Source: Promethearchaeota archaeon (GTDB taxonomy: Archaea; Asgardarchaeota; Heimdallarchaeia; Hodarchaeales; Hodarchaeaceae). Taken from it: a stretch of DNA of 64,000 nt. This document shows positions 5,332 to 17,201 of this stretch, one piece after another; position 1 is the stretch's first letter, and every line of letters starts with the position of its first letter. The stretch lies in NCBI GenBank assembly GCA_048938105.1, contig JBHLMN010000020.1, positions 1 to 64,000 of the forward strand, written 5' to 3'. A program made the translations under genes and the position numbers. The notes beneath the pieces are model-generated. The model worked only from the letters and a program-made list of their open reading frames with translations, had not been told where the DNA came from and made no database searches.

Positions 5332-6813
5332 TTGGTACTATTAATTAAGAGAGTATCCAAGATGACGGGTATAAAAGAACACATGGCAAATGAGATCGCT
5401 ATTAATTTCGACGAGTCCTTACCCTTTAAGTCAAAAATTGCCTATGGATTATCTCAAGCTTCTAGTGGTATTCTTAGTGGTATTGCCCTCGGTTCCGCAA
5501 TCACATTTTATTATAACATTAAGTTGGGTTTAAGTGAAGAATGGATCTCTCTTGCTTGGCTTCTGTTCGCTATTTGGAACGCAATTAACGATCCTTTATT
5601 TGGTATTCTCCAAGAACGCGTCGATACAGAGATAGGCAGGCGTATCCCTGTCCTGCGCTTTGGTGCGCCGATTTATGCTCTCACATTCATCATTTGCTGG
5701 TTTCCTTTCATGGGAAACACGCAAATAGCTCTATTTTGGAACCTGTTATTGGTCCTCTTTTTAGTTGACTCCATGTTCACTATGATTGGATTAGTTCTGA
5801 CGGCGCTACCAGCTGAAATGTGCCTTACCCAAGAAGCTAGGTCTAATCTTGGCTTATATAACGTGGTTCTAGGAGCTACTGGTGGTGTATTATCGGTGGT
5901 ACTCCCGTTGATCTTGCTTACCGATGAAACTTCAACCAAGCTCAACCCTCTTTTCAAACCAATGATGGTTCTGATAGGAATAGTTGCTGGAACAATCCTG
6001 TTTTTTTCGAGTTATACTCTGATTGAAAACGAGTATGCAAGGACTGAAGAGCCACTGGGTTTTATAGAATCGATGGTCACAACGATCAAGAACAGGGAGT
6101 TTCTAGCATTCGAAGTCAGTACTTTCGCGTATACCTTGGCTTTCACGATAGTAACAGGTTCCATGACATATTTCGTACAGTACATCCTGGGGTTACATGG
6201 TCTCTTGGCTTCTTTTCCTTTACTTGCTATTTTTATCCTATTACTACTATTTAGTTTTATTGCTGATAGGATGGTGAAACGGCGTGGGTTAAAGCAGGTT
6301 TATATTGTTGGGTTGATGCTAGCAAGTGCAGGCCTGGTATTGTTATTTTTCTTTGGGAGGTGGTTGATTCCAGTGATGTTAAGTCTTGCAGTGGTTGGGA
6401 TAGGTTTCGCTCCGATTGTCTTGATATGGAATCCATTATTAGCCGATGTAATGGATTACGATGAAATATTGACTGGTAAGAGACGGGAAACAACTTATGC
6501 TGGCATGAACGCGTTGATTAGCAAACCAGCGATCTCCATCGCTAATGCACTGTTCTTGTTGATTATCAGTGGATTCGGATTTGATAACACAGAATCTATA
6601 CAAACGCAATCGGCGCTTTTTGGTATACAACTGGGATATACGTTAATTCCTGGGATATTTTTTATGATTAGTGCAATAACGTTGCTGAAATGGTATACGC
6701 TTGATGGGAAAGAATGGATCGCTAAAAAAACAGAATTGGGCAAGATACACCTGCAAAAAGAAAAAGAATACATTGCACGTCTCCAGAAAGAGGGAAAGAT
6801 TTCCAAAGGTTGA
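5332..6813 (+). CDS. MFS transporter, glycoside-pentoside-hexuronide (GPH/MelB) family
   Basis: KIAYG, WNAINDPLFG..., GRR.P, LADVMDYDE..TG.RRE and about 12 TM segments. The real start may be ATG 5362 or 5383. Confidence 0.88.
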   Translation: MVLLIKRVSKMTGIKEHMANEIAINFDESLPFKSKIAYGLSQASSGILSGIALGSAITFYYNIKLGLSEEWISLAWLLFAIWNAINDPLFGILQERVDTEIGRRIPVLRFGAPIYALTFIICWFPFMGNTQIALFWNLLLVLFLVDSMFTMIGLVLTALPAEMCLTQEARSNLGLYNVVLGATGGVLSVVLPLILLTDETSTKLNPLFKPMMVLIGIVAGTILFFSSYTLIENEYARTEEPLGFIESMVTTIKNREFLAFEVSTFAYTLAFTIVTGSMTYFVQYILGLHGLLASFPLLAIFILLLLFSFIADRMVKRRGLKQVYIVGLMLASAGLVLLFFFGRWLIPVMLSLAVVGIGFAPIVLIWNPLLADVMDYDEILTGKRRETTYAGMNALISKPAISIANALFLLIISGFGFDNTESIQTQSALFGIQLGYTLIPGIFFMISAITLLKWYTLDGKEWIAKKTELGKIHLQKEKEYIARLQKEGKISKG

Positions 6814-11776: not shown

Positions 11777-11798
11777 ATATACAAGGAACCGAAAGGCA

Positions 11799-13073
11799 AT
11801 GATCGGGAATGGTAGAGATCTTAAACTTGATTATGAAGACCAACAAAAGTTAATCCTGATAGCTTTAAACCAGGAACCTCATACTAAACAAGAGATTAGC
11901 CATGAGATTTGGTATGGCTATTTTTATAGAAGAAACTGATAATATAGAAGAATTTTCTAAGATAGAAGGAGCTCTAGCTTATCTTGAGGAAGAAAAAAAG
12001 ATTCTTGTTGATAACACCTCTGGTGTTTATTCTTTATCCGAAAAAGGGGAAGTGGAAGCACAAAAATATGCAAAAGGACTTTATTCTTTTTTACTTTTCT
12101 AAAATATTTAGCACATCCTAATATATCTCCAATATTGTCATTGATTATCCATTTATTCTTAGGATCCATTAAATTAATCGGATTTTTCTTAATTGGTAGT
12201 GTTAGTTTATTGGGTGATGGATTGGATTCGGTAATGGATGGTGTTTCGTCTATCATTGTTGGATTGGCAATGAAAATAAGAAAAGAGAAGCAATCTACCT
12301 ATCTTTTACTTTTGTTAGTGTTCATAACAGGACTTGGTATTTTCCTACAAAGTATTGAGCGAATACTTATTCCAGAAGCACTCAAAGAGGGTGAATTAGC
12401 TATAACTATCGCTATAACCTCAATAGTTCTCTGTGGATTATTATATTTCTACCAACGTTTTTCAGGGTATAATAATAGAAATTTAGCGATACTTGCTCAG
12501 TCAGAAGATAGTAAAAACCATGTTCTAAATGCTTTTCTAGTTTTAATTGCCATTATCGCTGGTCTTTTTGGCATTTTCATACTTGATGGTATAGTAGGAT
12601 GTTTCATCGGATTCATTATTCTACAAGGGGCGTATAAAATCTATTCAGACTTAAAAGCTCAATCACAAGGGGAAGAAATCGATTATGAGAAATACAAACT
12701 TGGAATATGGAAACGATATGACAAACTTCAAGTCAAAATTTTAGATCTATGGATTTTATATAAAATCAAAAAGGATGTTAATACCTTAGAGAAATTAGAA
12801 AATGATTTTAATGATTTTTTTCAACCAATTATAGTTGCAGATAAAATGAACGAACAGCATATTTGGAAATCTCCTCAGCAAAAATCGCATCTTCTGAAAC
12901 GAATTCACAGCTTAAAGATATTTGGCTTATTGAAAGAAGAGAATGATGTTTTATTATTAACTGAAAAAGGAACTTTGAAACTTCAAAAGGAAATTCAGAA
13001 GGTTAGCAAAGAGACCAAGAAAAGAGGAAGGACTAAACGACACGAAAAGAAGATCAAGAAATTATCAACATAG
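11799..13073 (+). pseudogene. Cation diffusion facilitator (CDF) transporter with N- and C-terminal winged-helix domains, split by two frameshifts (near 11895 and 12090)
   Basis: ATG 11799 frame gives ...KLILIALNQEPHTKQE. The +1 frame continues LAMRFG...IEGALAYLEEE...VYSLSEKG (wHTH). A -1 shift at the T-run 12087-12092 enters the CDF frame (SVSLLGDGLDS.MD; SEDSKNH). The C-terminus ...LK.FGLLKEENDVLLLTEKG is a second wHTH. Confidence 0.68.
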
Positions 13074-13074
13074 T

Positions 13075-13752
13075 CTATAATTTCCCCATTGGTGTTTCAT
13101 CCCAAGCCTCACGGAAGATTTTCAACCCCTTCTCGGTGATTGGATGATTAAAGCTAGTTTTATAGACGTTAAATCCAGCAGTTATAATATCAATACCCGC
13201 TAGTGCTGCATCGGTTATTTGTCTTCCATTCCTTATTGCAGCAGCAATAATTTCTGTGTTAAAATTATAATTGTCGAATATTTTCCCTATGTCAAAAAGA
13301 AGTTTTGTAGTATCAACATCCCTAGCTTCTTGCCAACCAATGAACGGTGAACAATATGTTGCACCAATTCGTCCAGCTTGAATGGCTTGGGTGACACTAA
13401 ATACAAGAGTCACATTAACTCGGATATCATCCATGGTCAACTTTTTTGCAGCAATTAAACCTTGTTCATTGCAAGGGACTTTAATAACAAAGTTCTTGGA
13501 TAGAATAGAATATTTCCTTGCTTCTGAAATCATTTCATTGGCTTTTGTTAAATGAGGGTTAATTTCAATCGAAATTGGGAAATTTTTGCCTTTAAATTCC
13601 TCAGCTAATTCCTTAATGACTGCCATAAAAGATTTATCAGTATTTTTAATGTGTTTTGGGTTGATTGTTACTCCTTCGATCCCCCAGTTAATGTATGCAT
13701 ACCTAATTTCATCTATCTTTGCACTATCTAAGAAATATTTCATTTTATACAC
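13075..13752 (-). CDS. tal: Transaldolase of the small TalC/FSA subfamily; sulfofructose-transaldolase-like
   Basis: YFLDSA, GVT.NP, Schiff-base Lys in VIKVP, NVTLVFS, acid/base Glu (SIEIN) and Phe (SPF) typical of transaldolase. It has SPFIGW in place of SPFVGR. Confidence 0.9.
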   Translation of the reverse strand: MYKMKYFLDSAKIDEIRYAYINWGIEGVTINPKHIKNTDKSFMAVIKELAEEFKGKNFPISIEINPHLTKANEMISEARKYSILSKNFVIKVPCNEQGLIAAKKLTMDDIRVNVTLVFSVTQAIQAGRIGATYCSPFIGWQEARDVDTTKLLFDIGKIFDNYNFNTEIIAAAIRNGRQITDAALAGIDIITAGFNVYKTSFNHPITEKGLKIFREAWDETPMGKL

Positions 13753-13764
13753 CCATATAATTTT

Positions 13765-14517
13765 CTAGAATTTACCATGACGTCCTTCCCCGTTAATGAA
13801 TCGTTTAATTCCTCCATTTGCTTCTTTAAGTGAAACCAGACCATGATCAAATTCATTCATCAAGGCATTCTCCAATTTGAGGTCAAATTGTTCATAAGTA
13901 GATAATCTGTCTTCTCTAAGACATGTCTGGGGGAATTCTGAAATTTTCTGCGCTAGTTTTTCAGCTTCAGCTCTTGATTTACCTTCCTCAACAATATGAT
14001 TAGCTAGACCTATAGCCAATGCTTCATCAGCATACACAGGCCGTCCTGTGAGTATCATATCAAGGGCCCTACTTAATCCAATAAGTCTTGGTAATCGCAC
14101 CGTACCCCCATCTATCAGAGGTATACCCCATCTACGATTAAAGACACCAAAAACAGCATTTGTTTCGATCACTCGGAAATCACACCAAAGCGCAAGTTCA
14201 AGGCCACCAGCAACTGCAAAACCAGATATGGCAGCAATCACAGGTTTTGACAGCAACATTCTGGATGGTCCCATGGGTCCATTTCCAGTTCTTTCTATCA
14301 AGTTACCGAAACCCGCTTGAATTGCCTTTAGATTAGCGCCAGAACAAAAACATCCGTGATCACCCCAAAGTACTGCTACACATGCTTCCGAATTTTCAAA
14401 TTCTTTGAAAGCTTTTACTAAAGCTTCTGCTGTAGGGCCATCTACAGCGTTTCTGACGTTGGGATTATCAATAATAATGGTCCATACTAAGTCCTTCTGT
14501 TCAACTCTTATTCCCAT
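13765..14517 (-). CDS. Enoyl-CoA hydratase/crotonase family protein
   Basis: RNAVD, FCSGANL, KPVIAAISG.AVAGGLELAL.CD, DGGTVRLPRLIG. Confidence 0.93.
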   Translation of the reverse strand: MGIRVEQKDLVWTIIIDNPNVRNAVDGPTAEALVKAFKEFENSEACVAVLWGDHGCFCSGANLKAIQAGFGNLIERTGNGPMGPSRMLLSKPVIAAISGFAVAGGLELALWCDFRVIETNAVFGVFNRRWGIPLIDGGTVRLPRLIGLSRALDMILTGRPVYADEALAIGLANHIVEEGKSRAEAEKLAQKISEFPQTCLREDRLSTYEQFDLKLENALMNEFDHGLVSLKEANGGIKRFINGEGRHGKF

Positions 14518-14535: not shown

Positions 14536-15507
14536 TCATTGTGTAATTTCTCTCATATTCGATAAGAATACATCATTTTCCTTTTCCGTTCCCACAGCTA
14601 CTCTAATAAATCCTGGGAGCCATTTATCAGTAAGGTCAAGAACTAAGATTTCTTTTTTATCAAGCTTTGCTCCTATACTTGGGATATCGGTCTTGATGAG
14701 TAAAAAATTCGTTGTACTGGGATAAACTTGAAATCCCATCTTTTTTAAATCATCTCTCACACGTTCTCTCTCTTTAATAGTAAGTTCAATATTTTTCTTG
14801 ATATATTCTGGGTTTTTTATTGCTTCTATTGCTGCTAATAAACTGACTTGAGGTAACATTATCGAAAGTGAGGAAAATACCTCTAAAAACGTATCTCCTC
14901 CAATGATATATCCAATACGTGTTCCTGCTAAACCAAAAGCTTTGGAGATTGTTCTAGCTATAGCAAGATTTGGATATTCTTCCACCATATCAGCGAAAGT
15001 AAAATTAGTAAATTCATAGTACGCTTCATCGATTACCAGTAAAGCATTTGTATTTTCAAGAATGGTTTCAACAATCTTTTTATCCAGTAATATCTTCCCT
15101 GTTGGATTGTTGGGATTATCGATGATGATTAAAGATGGTTCTTTCAACTCATTATTAAGTAAATCAACATTCAAGGAGAAATTTGGTGGTTTGAGAGGAA
15201 TTTTTGTCAGCTTATATGCAAATTGTTTAGCTGCGTAATAAGTTGGTAAAAAGGTTGGATAAACCATAACAACCTTCCTCTCCTTTGAAAATATGTGGAT
15301 AATTTCTCTTAATATAAGGTCTGAACCTGGATATGCGATAATATATTTTTTAGGGACTCCTGAGTATTTAGCAAGAAATTTCTTTATTAGATCCCGATGT
15401 TCTGGTGAGGCATATCGATTCAATTGTGATAATCCCTTTTCAGCAGCTTGGATGATATTTGGGGGTGGAGGATAAGGTATCTCATTCATATTTAATCTTA
15501 TTTTCAT
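14536..15507 (-). CDS. hisC: Histidinol-phosphate aminotransferase family (PLP, class II)
   Basis: RLNMNE.P, NRY, NPNNPTG, IDEAY.EF, RT.SKAFGLAG.RIGY, IRV.VG. Confidence 0.82.
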   Translation of the reverse strand: MKIRLNMNEIPYPPPPNIIQAAEKGLSQLNRYASPEHRDLIKKFLAKYSGVPKKYIIAYPGSDLILREIIHIFSKERKVVMVYPTFLPTYYAAKQFAYKLTKIPLKPPNFSLNVDLLNNELKEPSLIIIDNPNNPTGKILLDKKIVETILENTNALLVIDEAYYEFTNFTFADMVEEYPNLAIARTISKAFGLAGTRIGYIIGGDTFLEVFSSLSIMLPQVSLLAAIEAIKNPEYIKKNIELTIKERERVRDDLKKMGFQVYPSTTNFLLIKTDIPSIGAKLDKKEILVLDLTDKWLPGFIRVAVGTEKENDVFLSNMREITQ

Positions 15508-15656: not shown

Positions 15657-17201
15657 TCATAAGATATCTTCATAGCATTTTTCGTCATAGAAATTGTTTT
15701 CCTCTTTATCATGGTTGGGATACCATACTTGAGCAAAATAAGGATTTTTTTTGGCTATTTCGTCATATCTCCAAGGAGGGGCTAAACATTCCGGGCACCA
15801 ATGACCTGCTTTAATAATAGTATATGGCTTTGCATTGAATTCATGATTAAACGCACATTTCCACTTTAAAGTAGAATACAGATCACCATCCCACTTTGAG
15901 GACAGACATTCTCCTCCTCTGAATTTCGCAGCCTTTTCTAAAGCAGCTAGTTCTAATTGTTCTTTCGATTCATCATAACCATGATCAAGACGAATGAATT
16001 GCATTTTTCGAGGATCAAGTTCAGGCATTTTTACCCCCCAATCAGGTATTGATTCAAATGTCTTATAATCTTTGTAGAATGCCGAAATTCTCTTATCATT
16101 TCTATTATTGTACCAGTAAACGGTACTATTTTTGGATTGAGTAGCTAATCTTTCTAATTGCTTATATGTTGCCTTTTCAACGATTTTTTTTATTAAAGGG
16201 GCTTTTTTACACAGATCAGTGATAATTTTTAGGAAAAAAGGTCTTCTATTTGCAAACATTTCATAAAAATCTTCCATTGAATGCCCCCAATTATGGATGT
16301 ATTTATTGAGAAGGTGACTATCCTCAAAGAATTGCATATGAAAATTGCGAAGAGCAAACCACTTTCTTTCTACAACCTTCTCTAACCTTAAACCATTTAT
16401 TGCAAACATCCGTTTCATAAGATCATAATAAGTCGTTTGACAGCTTGGGCCACCACCCATGTTGTAGACCCTTCGCCAAAAATCGGAGTCATCAGATATT
16501 TCTAAACAATTTATTAATCCTCTCCCTGCATCTTCTTTTGTGTTGTTTTCCATGAAAGAGTCGATCGGTTGATGAAACATGATTGGATCTTCCATATTGT
16601 CTGTAGTCATAATAAAAGTCTGTCTTAATGAAACCCAGTGTTTGATGTTCGACTCTAATACTACCCTTTCACCACGAATCTTAGTAACAGCGTAAAAGTC
16701 AAAAATTGAAGGTTTTAATGGATCTCCCACTCTCCCTTTATGGATTGTTTGAAGTCTGTCCCCAGTTTCGGCTACTGTGCCAATATAAACAAATTTAATA
16801 TGTTCTGCACCATTTGGTTGAGATTCAATTGCTTTCACAAGATGTTCAATTGCGATAGTATTAACAGCTCTAGCCATTTCTGGATTATGATCGGCAGCAG
16901 GAGAGATGAAAGCTAGAGGAGAGAGGCACCAATCGATGTATTTACAAGCTTCTTTAACATCAGGATAATTTGTTGCATCCCCCCACACAATTTTAAGACC
17001 ATTTCCTTCTACAATACCTCGTCCTGGTATTGATTTTATTCCACACAGTTTTTCATATTTATTAAAGAGTTTTTTATTCTTCTTTGATGGTCGTTGTAAT
17101 AAAATAATGTCATATACCTCTCTTTTCTGCCATAAATTCTTGAAAGCTTCAAAACCCATAGAACCAGAAGCACCCAATAATAATACCTTTATCTTTGGCA
17201 A
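15657..17201 (-). CDS. Extended-SDR NAD(P)-dependent epimerase/dehydratase with a C-terminal Zn-ribbon
   Basis: GASGSMG Rossmann motif, YAVTK (YxxxK), C-terminal WKC..NHEF...GHWCPEC. Confidence 0.82.
   Translation of the reverse strand: MPKIKVLLLGASGSMGFEAFKNLWQKREVYDIILLQRPSKKNKKLFNKYEKLCGIKSIPGRGIVEGNGLKIVWGDATNYPDVKEACKYIDWCLSPLAFISPAADHNPEMARAVNTIAIEHLVKAIESQPNGAEHIKFVYIGTVAETGDRLQTIHKGRVGDPLKPSIFDFYAVTKIRGERVVLESNIKHWVSLRQTFIMTTDNMEDPIMFHQPIDSFMENNTKEDAGRGLINCLEISDDSDFWRRVYNMGGGPSCQTTYYDLMKRMFAINGLRLEKVVERKWFALRNFHMQFFEDSHLLNKYIHNWGHSMEDFYEMFANRRPFFLKIITDLCKKAPLIKKIVEKATYKQLERLATQSKNSTVYWYNNRNDKRISAFYKDYKTFESIPDWGVKMPELDPRKMQFIRLDHGYDESKEQLELAALEKAAKFRGGECLSSKWDGDLYSTLKWKCAFNHEFNAKPYTIIKAGHWCPECLAPPWRYDEIAKKNPYFAQVWYPNHDKEENNFYDEKCYEDIL

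Follow-up and report, generated by a model that had tools for sequence, protein, structure and literature searches.

The window, by which we mean the whole 64-kb stretch of DNA analysed here, carries a transaldolase open reading frame at 13075-13752 that reads on the minus strand, not on the plus strand. The stop codon occupies positions 13075-13077, and the probable start is the ATG at 13743, which gives a protein beginning MKYFLDSA; the same methionine starts all homologues, and an in-frame GTG further upstream, at 13752, is an unlikely start. The frame is free of internal stops, frameshifts and indels and has the length of its relatives. A GGGTG motif of Shine-Dalgarno type lies inside the spacer that separates the gene from the preceding one, 6 nt before the ATG. 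By Pfam the encoded protein is a TAL_FSA member (PF00923, E 3.4e-40), and its gene is the only one of that family in the genome.

The surrounding genes are those named by the original prediction, which had described a crotonase gene, a hisC-like gene and a GPH-type transporter gene in the vicinity (Table 1). The crotonase and hisC-like aminotransferase genes are both conserved in congeners, and the crotonase gene is not a part of sulfoglycolysis. Since the transaldolase gene follows these two native genes after a short spacer and in the same orientation, its transcription by read-through is plausible. A 514-aa open reading frame at 15657-17201 on the minus strand, between Liv-type ABC transporter genes and the aminotransferase gene, gave no Pfam or NCBIfam match and may encode a divergent substrate-binding protein.

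Table 1. Features of the transaldolase locus, in window coordinates, with the segments missing from sister genomes
Feature	Position	Strand	Evidence or remark
GPH-family sugar:cation symporter	5332..6813	+	TIGR00792, 157 bits, below cut-off
CDF transporter plus transaldolase, 1985 bp	11778..13762	.	missing from sister genomes G213, G255 and G138
CDF cation-efflux gene	12135..13073	+	convergent with transaldolase; stop codons 1 nt apart
Transaldolase gene plus short leader, 690 bp	13067..13756	.	missing from sister genome G249
SF-TAL-type (SftT/SqvA family) class-3 transaldolase CDS, 222 aa	13078..13743	-	PF00923, PDB search, tree, residues kept
Spacer of 21 nt, crotonase stop to transaldolase ATG	13744..13764	-	read directly from sequence
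Native crotonase / enoyl-CoA hydratase family gene	13765..14517	-	NF006108, 386 bits, cut-off 273; directly upstream
Native hisC-like class I/II aminotransferase	14536..15507	-	TIGR01141, 254 bits, cut-off 277; upstream, same orientation

Searched against all PDB sequences, the transaldolase matched best the Bacillus megaterium sulfofructose transaldolase (SF-TAL) structures 8BC3, 8BC4 and 8BC2 (E 5.5e-84, 285 bits, residues 1-217). The best ordinary TalC, from T. maritima (1VPX), reached 156 bits, the T. acidophilum enzyme 147-150 bits, and FSA structures at most 74 bits. On TIGR00875, the NCBIfam equivalog for TalC/FSA, the protein scored 180.5 bits, under the cut-off of 245.95. A profile-free scan of 1.8 billion representatives at 50% identity returned two proteins at 248-249 bits (55-56% identity), followed by matches of no more than about 167 bits, some of them fragments and others ordinary TalC-like proteins. 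Its best 120 database homologues are 63-71% identical to it, and those of them that are named are Loki-, Hod-, Thor-, Hermod- or Sigyn-archaeal. The E. coli FSA (1L6W) belongs to the same Pfam family, TAL_FSA, but reached 61-74 bits. FSA has a tyrosine in place of Phe134 and a glutamine in place of Glu60; the window protein, unlike FSA, has the transaldolase-type residues F134 and E60.

Three short motifs separate the SF-TAL type from TalC. Residues 28-31 read NPTL in TalC, NPKH in the window protein and NPRH in the Bacillus SF-TAL; residues 132-137 read SPFVGR, SPFIGW and SPFVGW, respectively; and residues 167-171 read AASIR or VASIR, AAAIR and VAALR. Residues 167-173 of the window protein are AAAIRNG, against AASIRH and VASIRN in TalC, as taken from the aligned structures 1VPX and 6YS0. 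Snow et al. are said to have found in 2023 that an Arg-Trp-Arg triad recognises the sulfonate in the Bacillus SF-TAL. In the alignment, W137 and R171 are kept and K30 takes the first position of that pocket. The Schiff-base residue of the Bacillus SF-TAL is Lys89 (PMC12890257), with which Lys88 of the window protein aligns.

The phylogeny was calculated first with 102 sequences, among them a TalC outgroup of 14 rows. A branch with an SH-aLRT value of 100 and a length of 0.78 split the SF-TAL family from 12 of these rows; the other two (P0126 and P0144), both on very long branches, fell on the SF-TAL side, so the outgroup is not cleanly separated. The window protein lay within an archaeal subclade (SH-aLRT 94). 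After the addition of 44 more database homologues, it grouped with P0002, P0006, P0010, P0033, L021 and L057 (support 85), of which P0010 and P0033 are labelled Hodarchaeales/Hodarchaeota. By path length its nearest rows include P0002, P0006 and P0010, with the pairing to P0010 unsupported, and its end branch in this second tree measures 0.43 against a median of 0.10. Sequence, residues and phylogeny all make the window gene a genuine member of the SftT/SqvA family. In bacteria, enzymes of this family serve in the breakdown of sulfoquinovose, a sulfur sugar of plants; they cleave sulfofructose to sulfolactaldehyde, with GAP or E4P as the acceptor. The original prediction had come to the same assignment from the letters: it had noted closeness to SqvA/SftT, now seen both in the bit scores against TalC and FSA and in the placement within the SqvA/SftT clade; it had read SPFIGW and AAAIR where TalC has SPFVGR and AASIR; and it had described a sulfonate pocket with the tryptophan and last arginine kept and a lysine first.

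We then consider the family in other genomes, using 85 distinct SF-TAL family loci from species-representative genomes and counting as partners genes within 8-10 kb. At least one partner (SftI-type isomerase, YihQ-type GH31 or YihU-like reductase) was present at 68 of the 85 loci, and the isomerase at 64; an AEC-family exporter and GPH transporters also occur among the partners. Such context was found in Priestia, Paenibacillus, Clostridia, Spirochaetes, one Bathyarchaeota MAG and about 30 Asgard loci, and in the Hodarchaeales relative P0010 the genes stand in the row MFS - x - TAL - SftI - GH31 - GH2. The SftI-type partner, of 438-448 aa, has NF048012 as its only NCBIfam match, full length at 230-310 bits, below the 700-bit equivalog cut-off. 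The GH31 partner scored 773 bits, above the cut-off of 553, on NF007746, which we take to represent the sulfoquinovosidase family of E. coli YihQ. The reductase partner is a beta-hydroxyacid dehydrogenase with 152 bits on the sulfolactaldehyde reductase model NF012005, below cut-off, and a higher score of 197 bits on TIGR01505, a model of tartronate-semialdehyde reductase. Among 300 sampled genomes of the phylum, a strong SftI match was present in all 15 other carriers of the SF-TAL type (E <= 1e-89), in 14 of them on the contig of the transaldolase; about 100 other Asgard genomes had instead the ordinary TalC type, which shares 35-42% identity with the window protein. Members of the SftT/SqvA family are widespread across the Asgard archaea and mostly lie in full sulfo-TAL-type clusters. 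The window gene stands outside this context, with crotonase, aminotransferase and CDF transporter genes as its neighbours.

Comparison with congeners bears on how the gene came to lie there. A protein search found a transaldolase of any kind in none of 19 same-genus genomes, and the DNA of the transaldolase segment was matched in none of 20. In sister genome G249, the ends of the CDF and crotonase genes lie 3 nt apart, where the genome under study (G000) has 690 bp. In G213, G255 and G138, an alpha/beta-hydrolase gene (ending near 11777) is followed by the crotonase gene after 14-82 nt, an arrangement that G240 shares. Several congeners share the gene order of both flanks, with nucleotide identities of about 70-87%, and the breakpoints are clean. 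Horizontal acquisition of the transaldolase gene, which the original prediction had offered as one option, is well supported by its absence from the 19-20 congeners and by the abutting flanks in G249. Because the gene is absent from congeners and its flanking genes abut in a sister genome, the event appears to be a single-gene acquisition behind the native aminotransferase/crotonase operon. On parsimony, which is what sets the direction of the indel, this lineage would have gained the gene, rather than others having lost it repeatedly, and the CDF gene would have arrived at the same spot earlier.

The junctions themselves were also inspected. GC and GC3 of the transaldolase gene are indistinguishable from those of neighbouring genes and give no transfer signal, the leader and trailer showed no similarity to donor loci, and a repeat search found no flanking repeat family at the junctions. 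A Dif/Xer-like cassette insertion was rejected, as the GGCTGGATT core gave 18 matches against 12.4 expected and none at the junctions. An 8-nt microhomology at the junctions, TATAATTT, read by eye, was judged close to chance and set aside. The CDF gene (11778-13073 region) is itself an indel, carried by G000 and G249 alone among the congeners compared at the locus. In G249 (L030:740-775), the CDF/crotonase junction holds two copies of the 10-nt string AAAATTGTCC, spaced 21 nt apart, a doubling that could be the footprint of an insertion event.

The genome in which pathway partners were sought is a draft of 5.85 Mb in 65 contigs, with 35% GC, an estimated completeness of 99% and an estimated contamination of 7.25%, and is archaeal by 16S. 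Its archaeal 16S rRNA match (G000:C9:1695-3919, locus L002) spans 2225 bp against a 1478-position model, and so the gene probably has insertion(s) or introns. No SftI was found in the genome with model NF048012 or by tblastn with Asgard and bacterial isomerases, and no YihQ-type GH31 with model NF007746 or by tblastn with an Asgard GH31. The YihU family gave no match in the genome with NF012005 at E <= 1e-5; the control search matched in 12 of 14 reference genomes. DUF4867 was likewise not found, a weak result since its control matched nothing anywhere. Three candidates were rejected. The one weak GH31 match, on contig C27, has GH36 alpha-galactosidases such as 1ZY9 as its closest structures and was dismissed as a sulfoquinovosidase; an AGE/YihS-family match on contig C14 resembles the cellobiose 2-epimerase EpiA (378 bits) and was dismissed as a sulfoquinovose isomerase; and the GPH transporter shares 22-27% identity with the transporters of Asgard sulfo-TAL clusters and was dismissed as a sulfoquinovose importer. 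With no sulfoquinovose isomerase, sulfoquinovosidase or sulfolactaldehyde reductase found, the organism would be unable to run the canonical sulfoquinovose pathway. Sulfoquinovose catabolism by this organism, raised as a possibility by the original prediction, is not supported; the original prediction had itself counted a lack of the other sulfoglycolysis genes among what would refute it, and SftI, the YihQ-type sulfoquinovosidase, the YihU-family reductase and DUF4867 were all not found. A link between the transaldolase and the GPH transporter about 6 kb away is not supported either, given that low identity.

The reading that we favour, at slightly better than even odds (roughly 0.55), is that of an orphan SF-TAL family gene, captured alone, probably still competent and accessory in a host with no working sulfosugar pathway. 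The gene would have come alone from the sulfo-TAL cluster of another Asgard archaeon and landed between the CDF transporter gene and the 3' end of the native aminotransferase/crotonase operon, and read-through from that operon would probably transcribe it. By homology, the product would be a class I (Schiff-base) enzyme of about 220 aa, in which Lys88 forms the imine with the ketose donor, Asp6 and Glu60 complete the catalytic triad, and an aldehyde acceptor (GAP or E4P, for example) then receives the dihydroxyacetone. An anion pocket would hold the distal end of the substrate; in it, Trp137 takes the place of the phosphate-binding arginine of TalC, Arg171 is kept, Ala169 stands for the TalC serine and Lys30 for the Bacillus arginine. 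The transaldolase is probably still catalytically competent. It would perform at most a promiscuous transaldol exchange of the F6P/S7P type, which would have no obvious metabolic use because no transketolase was found; S7P transaldolase activity has been described for the Bacillus SftT (PMC7491151). The transaldolase gene would then be accessory and near-neutral, under relaxed or shifted constraint. A repurposed enzyme, also named in the original prediction, is possible.

An alignment of 207 SF-TAL family members shows in what state the protein is. Eleven residues, D6, N28, H31, E60, K88, N110, T112, S132, F134, W137 and R171, are invariant in the 207 members, and all 11 are kept in the window protein. 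Position 30 is lysine in 162 of the 207, arginine in 40 and asparagine in 5, so that the lysine at the first pocket position is the commonest state of the family; cluster-embedded Asgard members also have it, and lysine for arginine would be a conservative change. Elsewhere, among the 89 near-invariant columns, the window protein departs from the family at 7, where the median is 1 and the 90th percentile 4. Four of its changes are unique to it: S/T27I (S or T in 206 of 207), G36D (G in 204), G142D (G in 206), which is preceded by S141R, and F202I (F in 201, Y in 5). Two unique changes fall, in sequence, 5-6 residues after the pocket elements Lys30 and Trp137. Together, the long branch and the unique changes suggest that constraint has been relaxed or has shifted after the gene lost its pathway context. 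The changes S/T27I, G36D, S141R/G142D and F202I lie close, in sequence, to two of the three pocket elements; it is nevertheless quite unlikely that they re-tuned the captured enzyme by turning its distal pocket to a donor or acceptor other than sulfofructose or sugar phosphates. If they did, a new sugar-rearranging reaction would run from an amino-acid/acyl-CoA operon, in a Hodarchaeales archaeon in which neither transketolase nor any other transaldolase was found.

The same changes bear on a bleaker account, in which the gene is a functionless relic, captured by chance, damaged at structurally required positions and heading for loss. The seven departures, G36D and G142D among them, the end branch more than four times the median, the absence of the gene from all congeners searched and the partners that were not found are what such a relic would be expected to show. 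We nevertheless regard this account as unlikely: the frame has no stop, frameshift or indel, the catalytic and pocket residues are intact, the ribosome-binding motif is good, the gene is placed in an operon, and its GC and GC3 match those of its neighbours. The intact frame, as long as in relatives, and the complete set of catalytic residues also count against the favoured reading of a near-neutral gene, since they suggest that selection maintains a function of some kind.

That the organism nonetheless degrades sulfoquinovose or sulfofructose with a true SF-TAL is highly doubtful. The partners would then be non-homologous, unassembled or held by cross-feeding neighbours, and a generic dehydrogenase would take the sulfolactaldehyde. 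Trp137, Arg171 and Lys30 are kept as in cluster-embedded Asgard homologues, Hodarchaeales relatives have the full cluster, and the genome is a draft of 65 contigs, with an estimated contamination of 7%, whose gaps could hide a partner gene. Sulfofructose might also come from non-homologous enzymes, and both points weigh against the orphan reading. Against degradation, SftI, YihQ-type GH31, the YihU family and DUF4867 were all missed by profile and tblastn searches of a 99%-complete genome, the isomerase shares the transaldolase contig in 14 of the 15 other Asgard carriers, and both flanks are resolved here and syntenic with congeners. Extracellular sulfofructose is not known to serve as a nutrient.

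The remaining two alternatives have little to recommend them, and we return after them to the orphan gene. A housekeeping pentose-phosphate transaldolase of the TalC type, with its odd motifs as lineage noise, might be argued from its being the only TAL_FSA gene in the genome and from the S7P activity of the Bacillus enzyme (PMC7491151), yet it is largely refuted and its chance close to negligible. TalC enzymes (Thermotoga maritima 1VPX, Thermoplasma acidophilum 3S0C) share the fold, length and catalytic residues with the window protein at 37-43% identity; TalC has the phosphate-binding Arg and Ser of SPFVGR and AASIR together with NPTL and works with transketolase, neither of which holds here. 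The transketolase N domain (PF00456) had no match in the genome, with a control that matched 13 of 14 reference genomes, and the 19-20 congeners have no transaldolase; the score lies below the TIGR00875 cut-off, the tree puts the protein in the SF-TAL clade, and other Asgard families have a separate, ordinary TalC. With no transketolase N domain found in this 99%-complete genome and no transaldolase found in its congeners, pentoses and erythrose-4-phosphate must be supplied by another route. An assembly or binning artefact, with the gene foreign to the genome, is scarcely credible: the 7.25% estimated contamination and the presence of the exact protein on one contig only are set against a gene 13 kb inside a 110-kb contig, flanks syntenic with congeners at 70-87% identity, junctions at the gene ends, 1 nt and 21 nt from neighbouring stop codons, and a composition equal to that of its neighbours.

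As an orphan of the SF-TAL family, the window protein is best compared with SqvA/SftT of Priestia (Bacillus) megaterium DSM 1804 and P. aryabhattai SOS1 (PDB 8BC2/8BC3/8BC4; Frommeyer et al. 2020, PMC7491151), to which it aligns from end to end with about 60% identity. The two share the Asp-Lys-Glu set, the tryptophan of SPF(I/V)GW, the arginine of AA(x)RNG and membership of the TalC-like class of about 220 aa. They differ in that the window protein has lysine for arginine in NP(R/K)H, lysine being commonest in the archaeal clade, and in its archaeal host, the lack of sft/sqv partners found in the genome, and the unique changes at 27, 36, 142 and 202. A "sulfonate signature" in a transaldolase does not by itself predict the pathway: the signature gene is present here, and neither the partners searched for nor a transketolase was found. 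The locus offers, in addition, a clean case from nature of a Hodarchaeales genome that captured a single gene, and the changes of the orphan enzyme at otherwise invariant positions make it a useful comparison protein for sulfonate versus phosphate specificity.

More notable is the wide occurrence of sulfo-TAL-type clusters in Asgard archaea, as none was known from archaea in the literature searched; according to a review from 2026, archaea have no characterised pathway for sulfoquinovose degradation (PMC12890257). The transaldolases of these clusters (e.g. L003, L011 and L116, from Promethearchaeota and Hodarchaeota MAGs) belong to the same archaeal subclade as the window protein, with 62-71% identity and the same NPKH, GW and RNG motifs. 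Their genes adjoin an SftI-type isomerase, a YihQ-type GH31, a YihU-like reductase or AEC exporter, and GPH transporters, whereas the window gene stands alone. No characterisation of these clusters was found in the literature searched.

Some Asgard loci depart from this pattern. Tandem paralogue arrays adjoin the SF-TAL genes at L009:337-9862, L014:13476-20660 and L018:13240-20345. The first comprises six GPH-type transporters upstream of the SF-TAL gene; at L014 and L018, five paralogues of about 450 aa and a flavoprotein resembling amine oxidase or UDP-galactopyranose mutase lie downstream, and isomerase and GH31 are absent within the flanks of these two loci. At L007:10787-11839 and L011:7095-8147, from Promethearchaeota and Hodarchaeota MAGs, a sulfite-oxidase-like molybdopterin oxidoreductase fused to DUF4079 stands between the transaldolase and the SftI-type isomerase, the place of the YihU-like reductase in other clusters, and could indicate a different handling of the sulfonated product or of sulfite. 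Lastly, the SF-TALs of SAR324 and Desulfobacterales MAGs (L020, L063, L064 and L067) nest within the archaeal subclade with supports of 93-97, adjoining a Promethearchaeota sequence, which suggests transfer between Asgard archaea and sediment bacteria of the deltaproteobacterial type.
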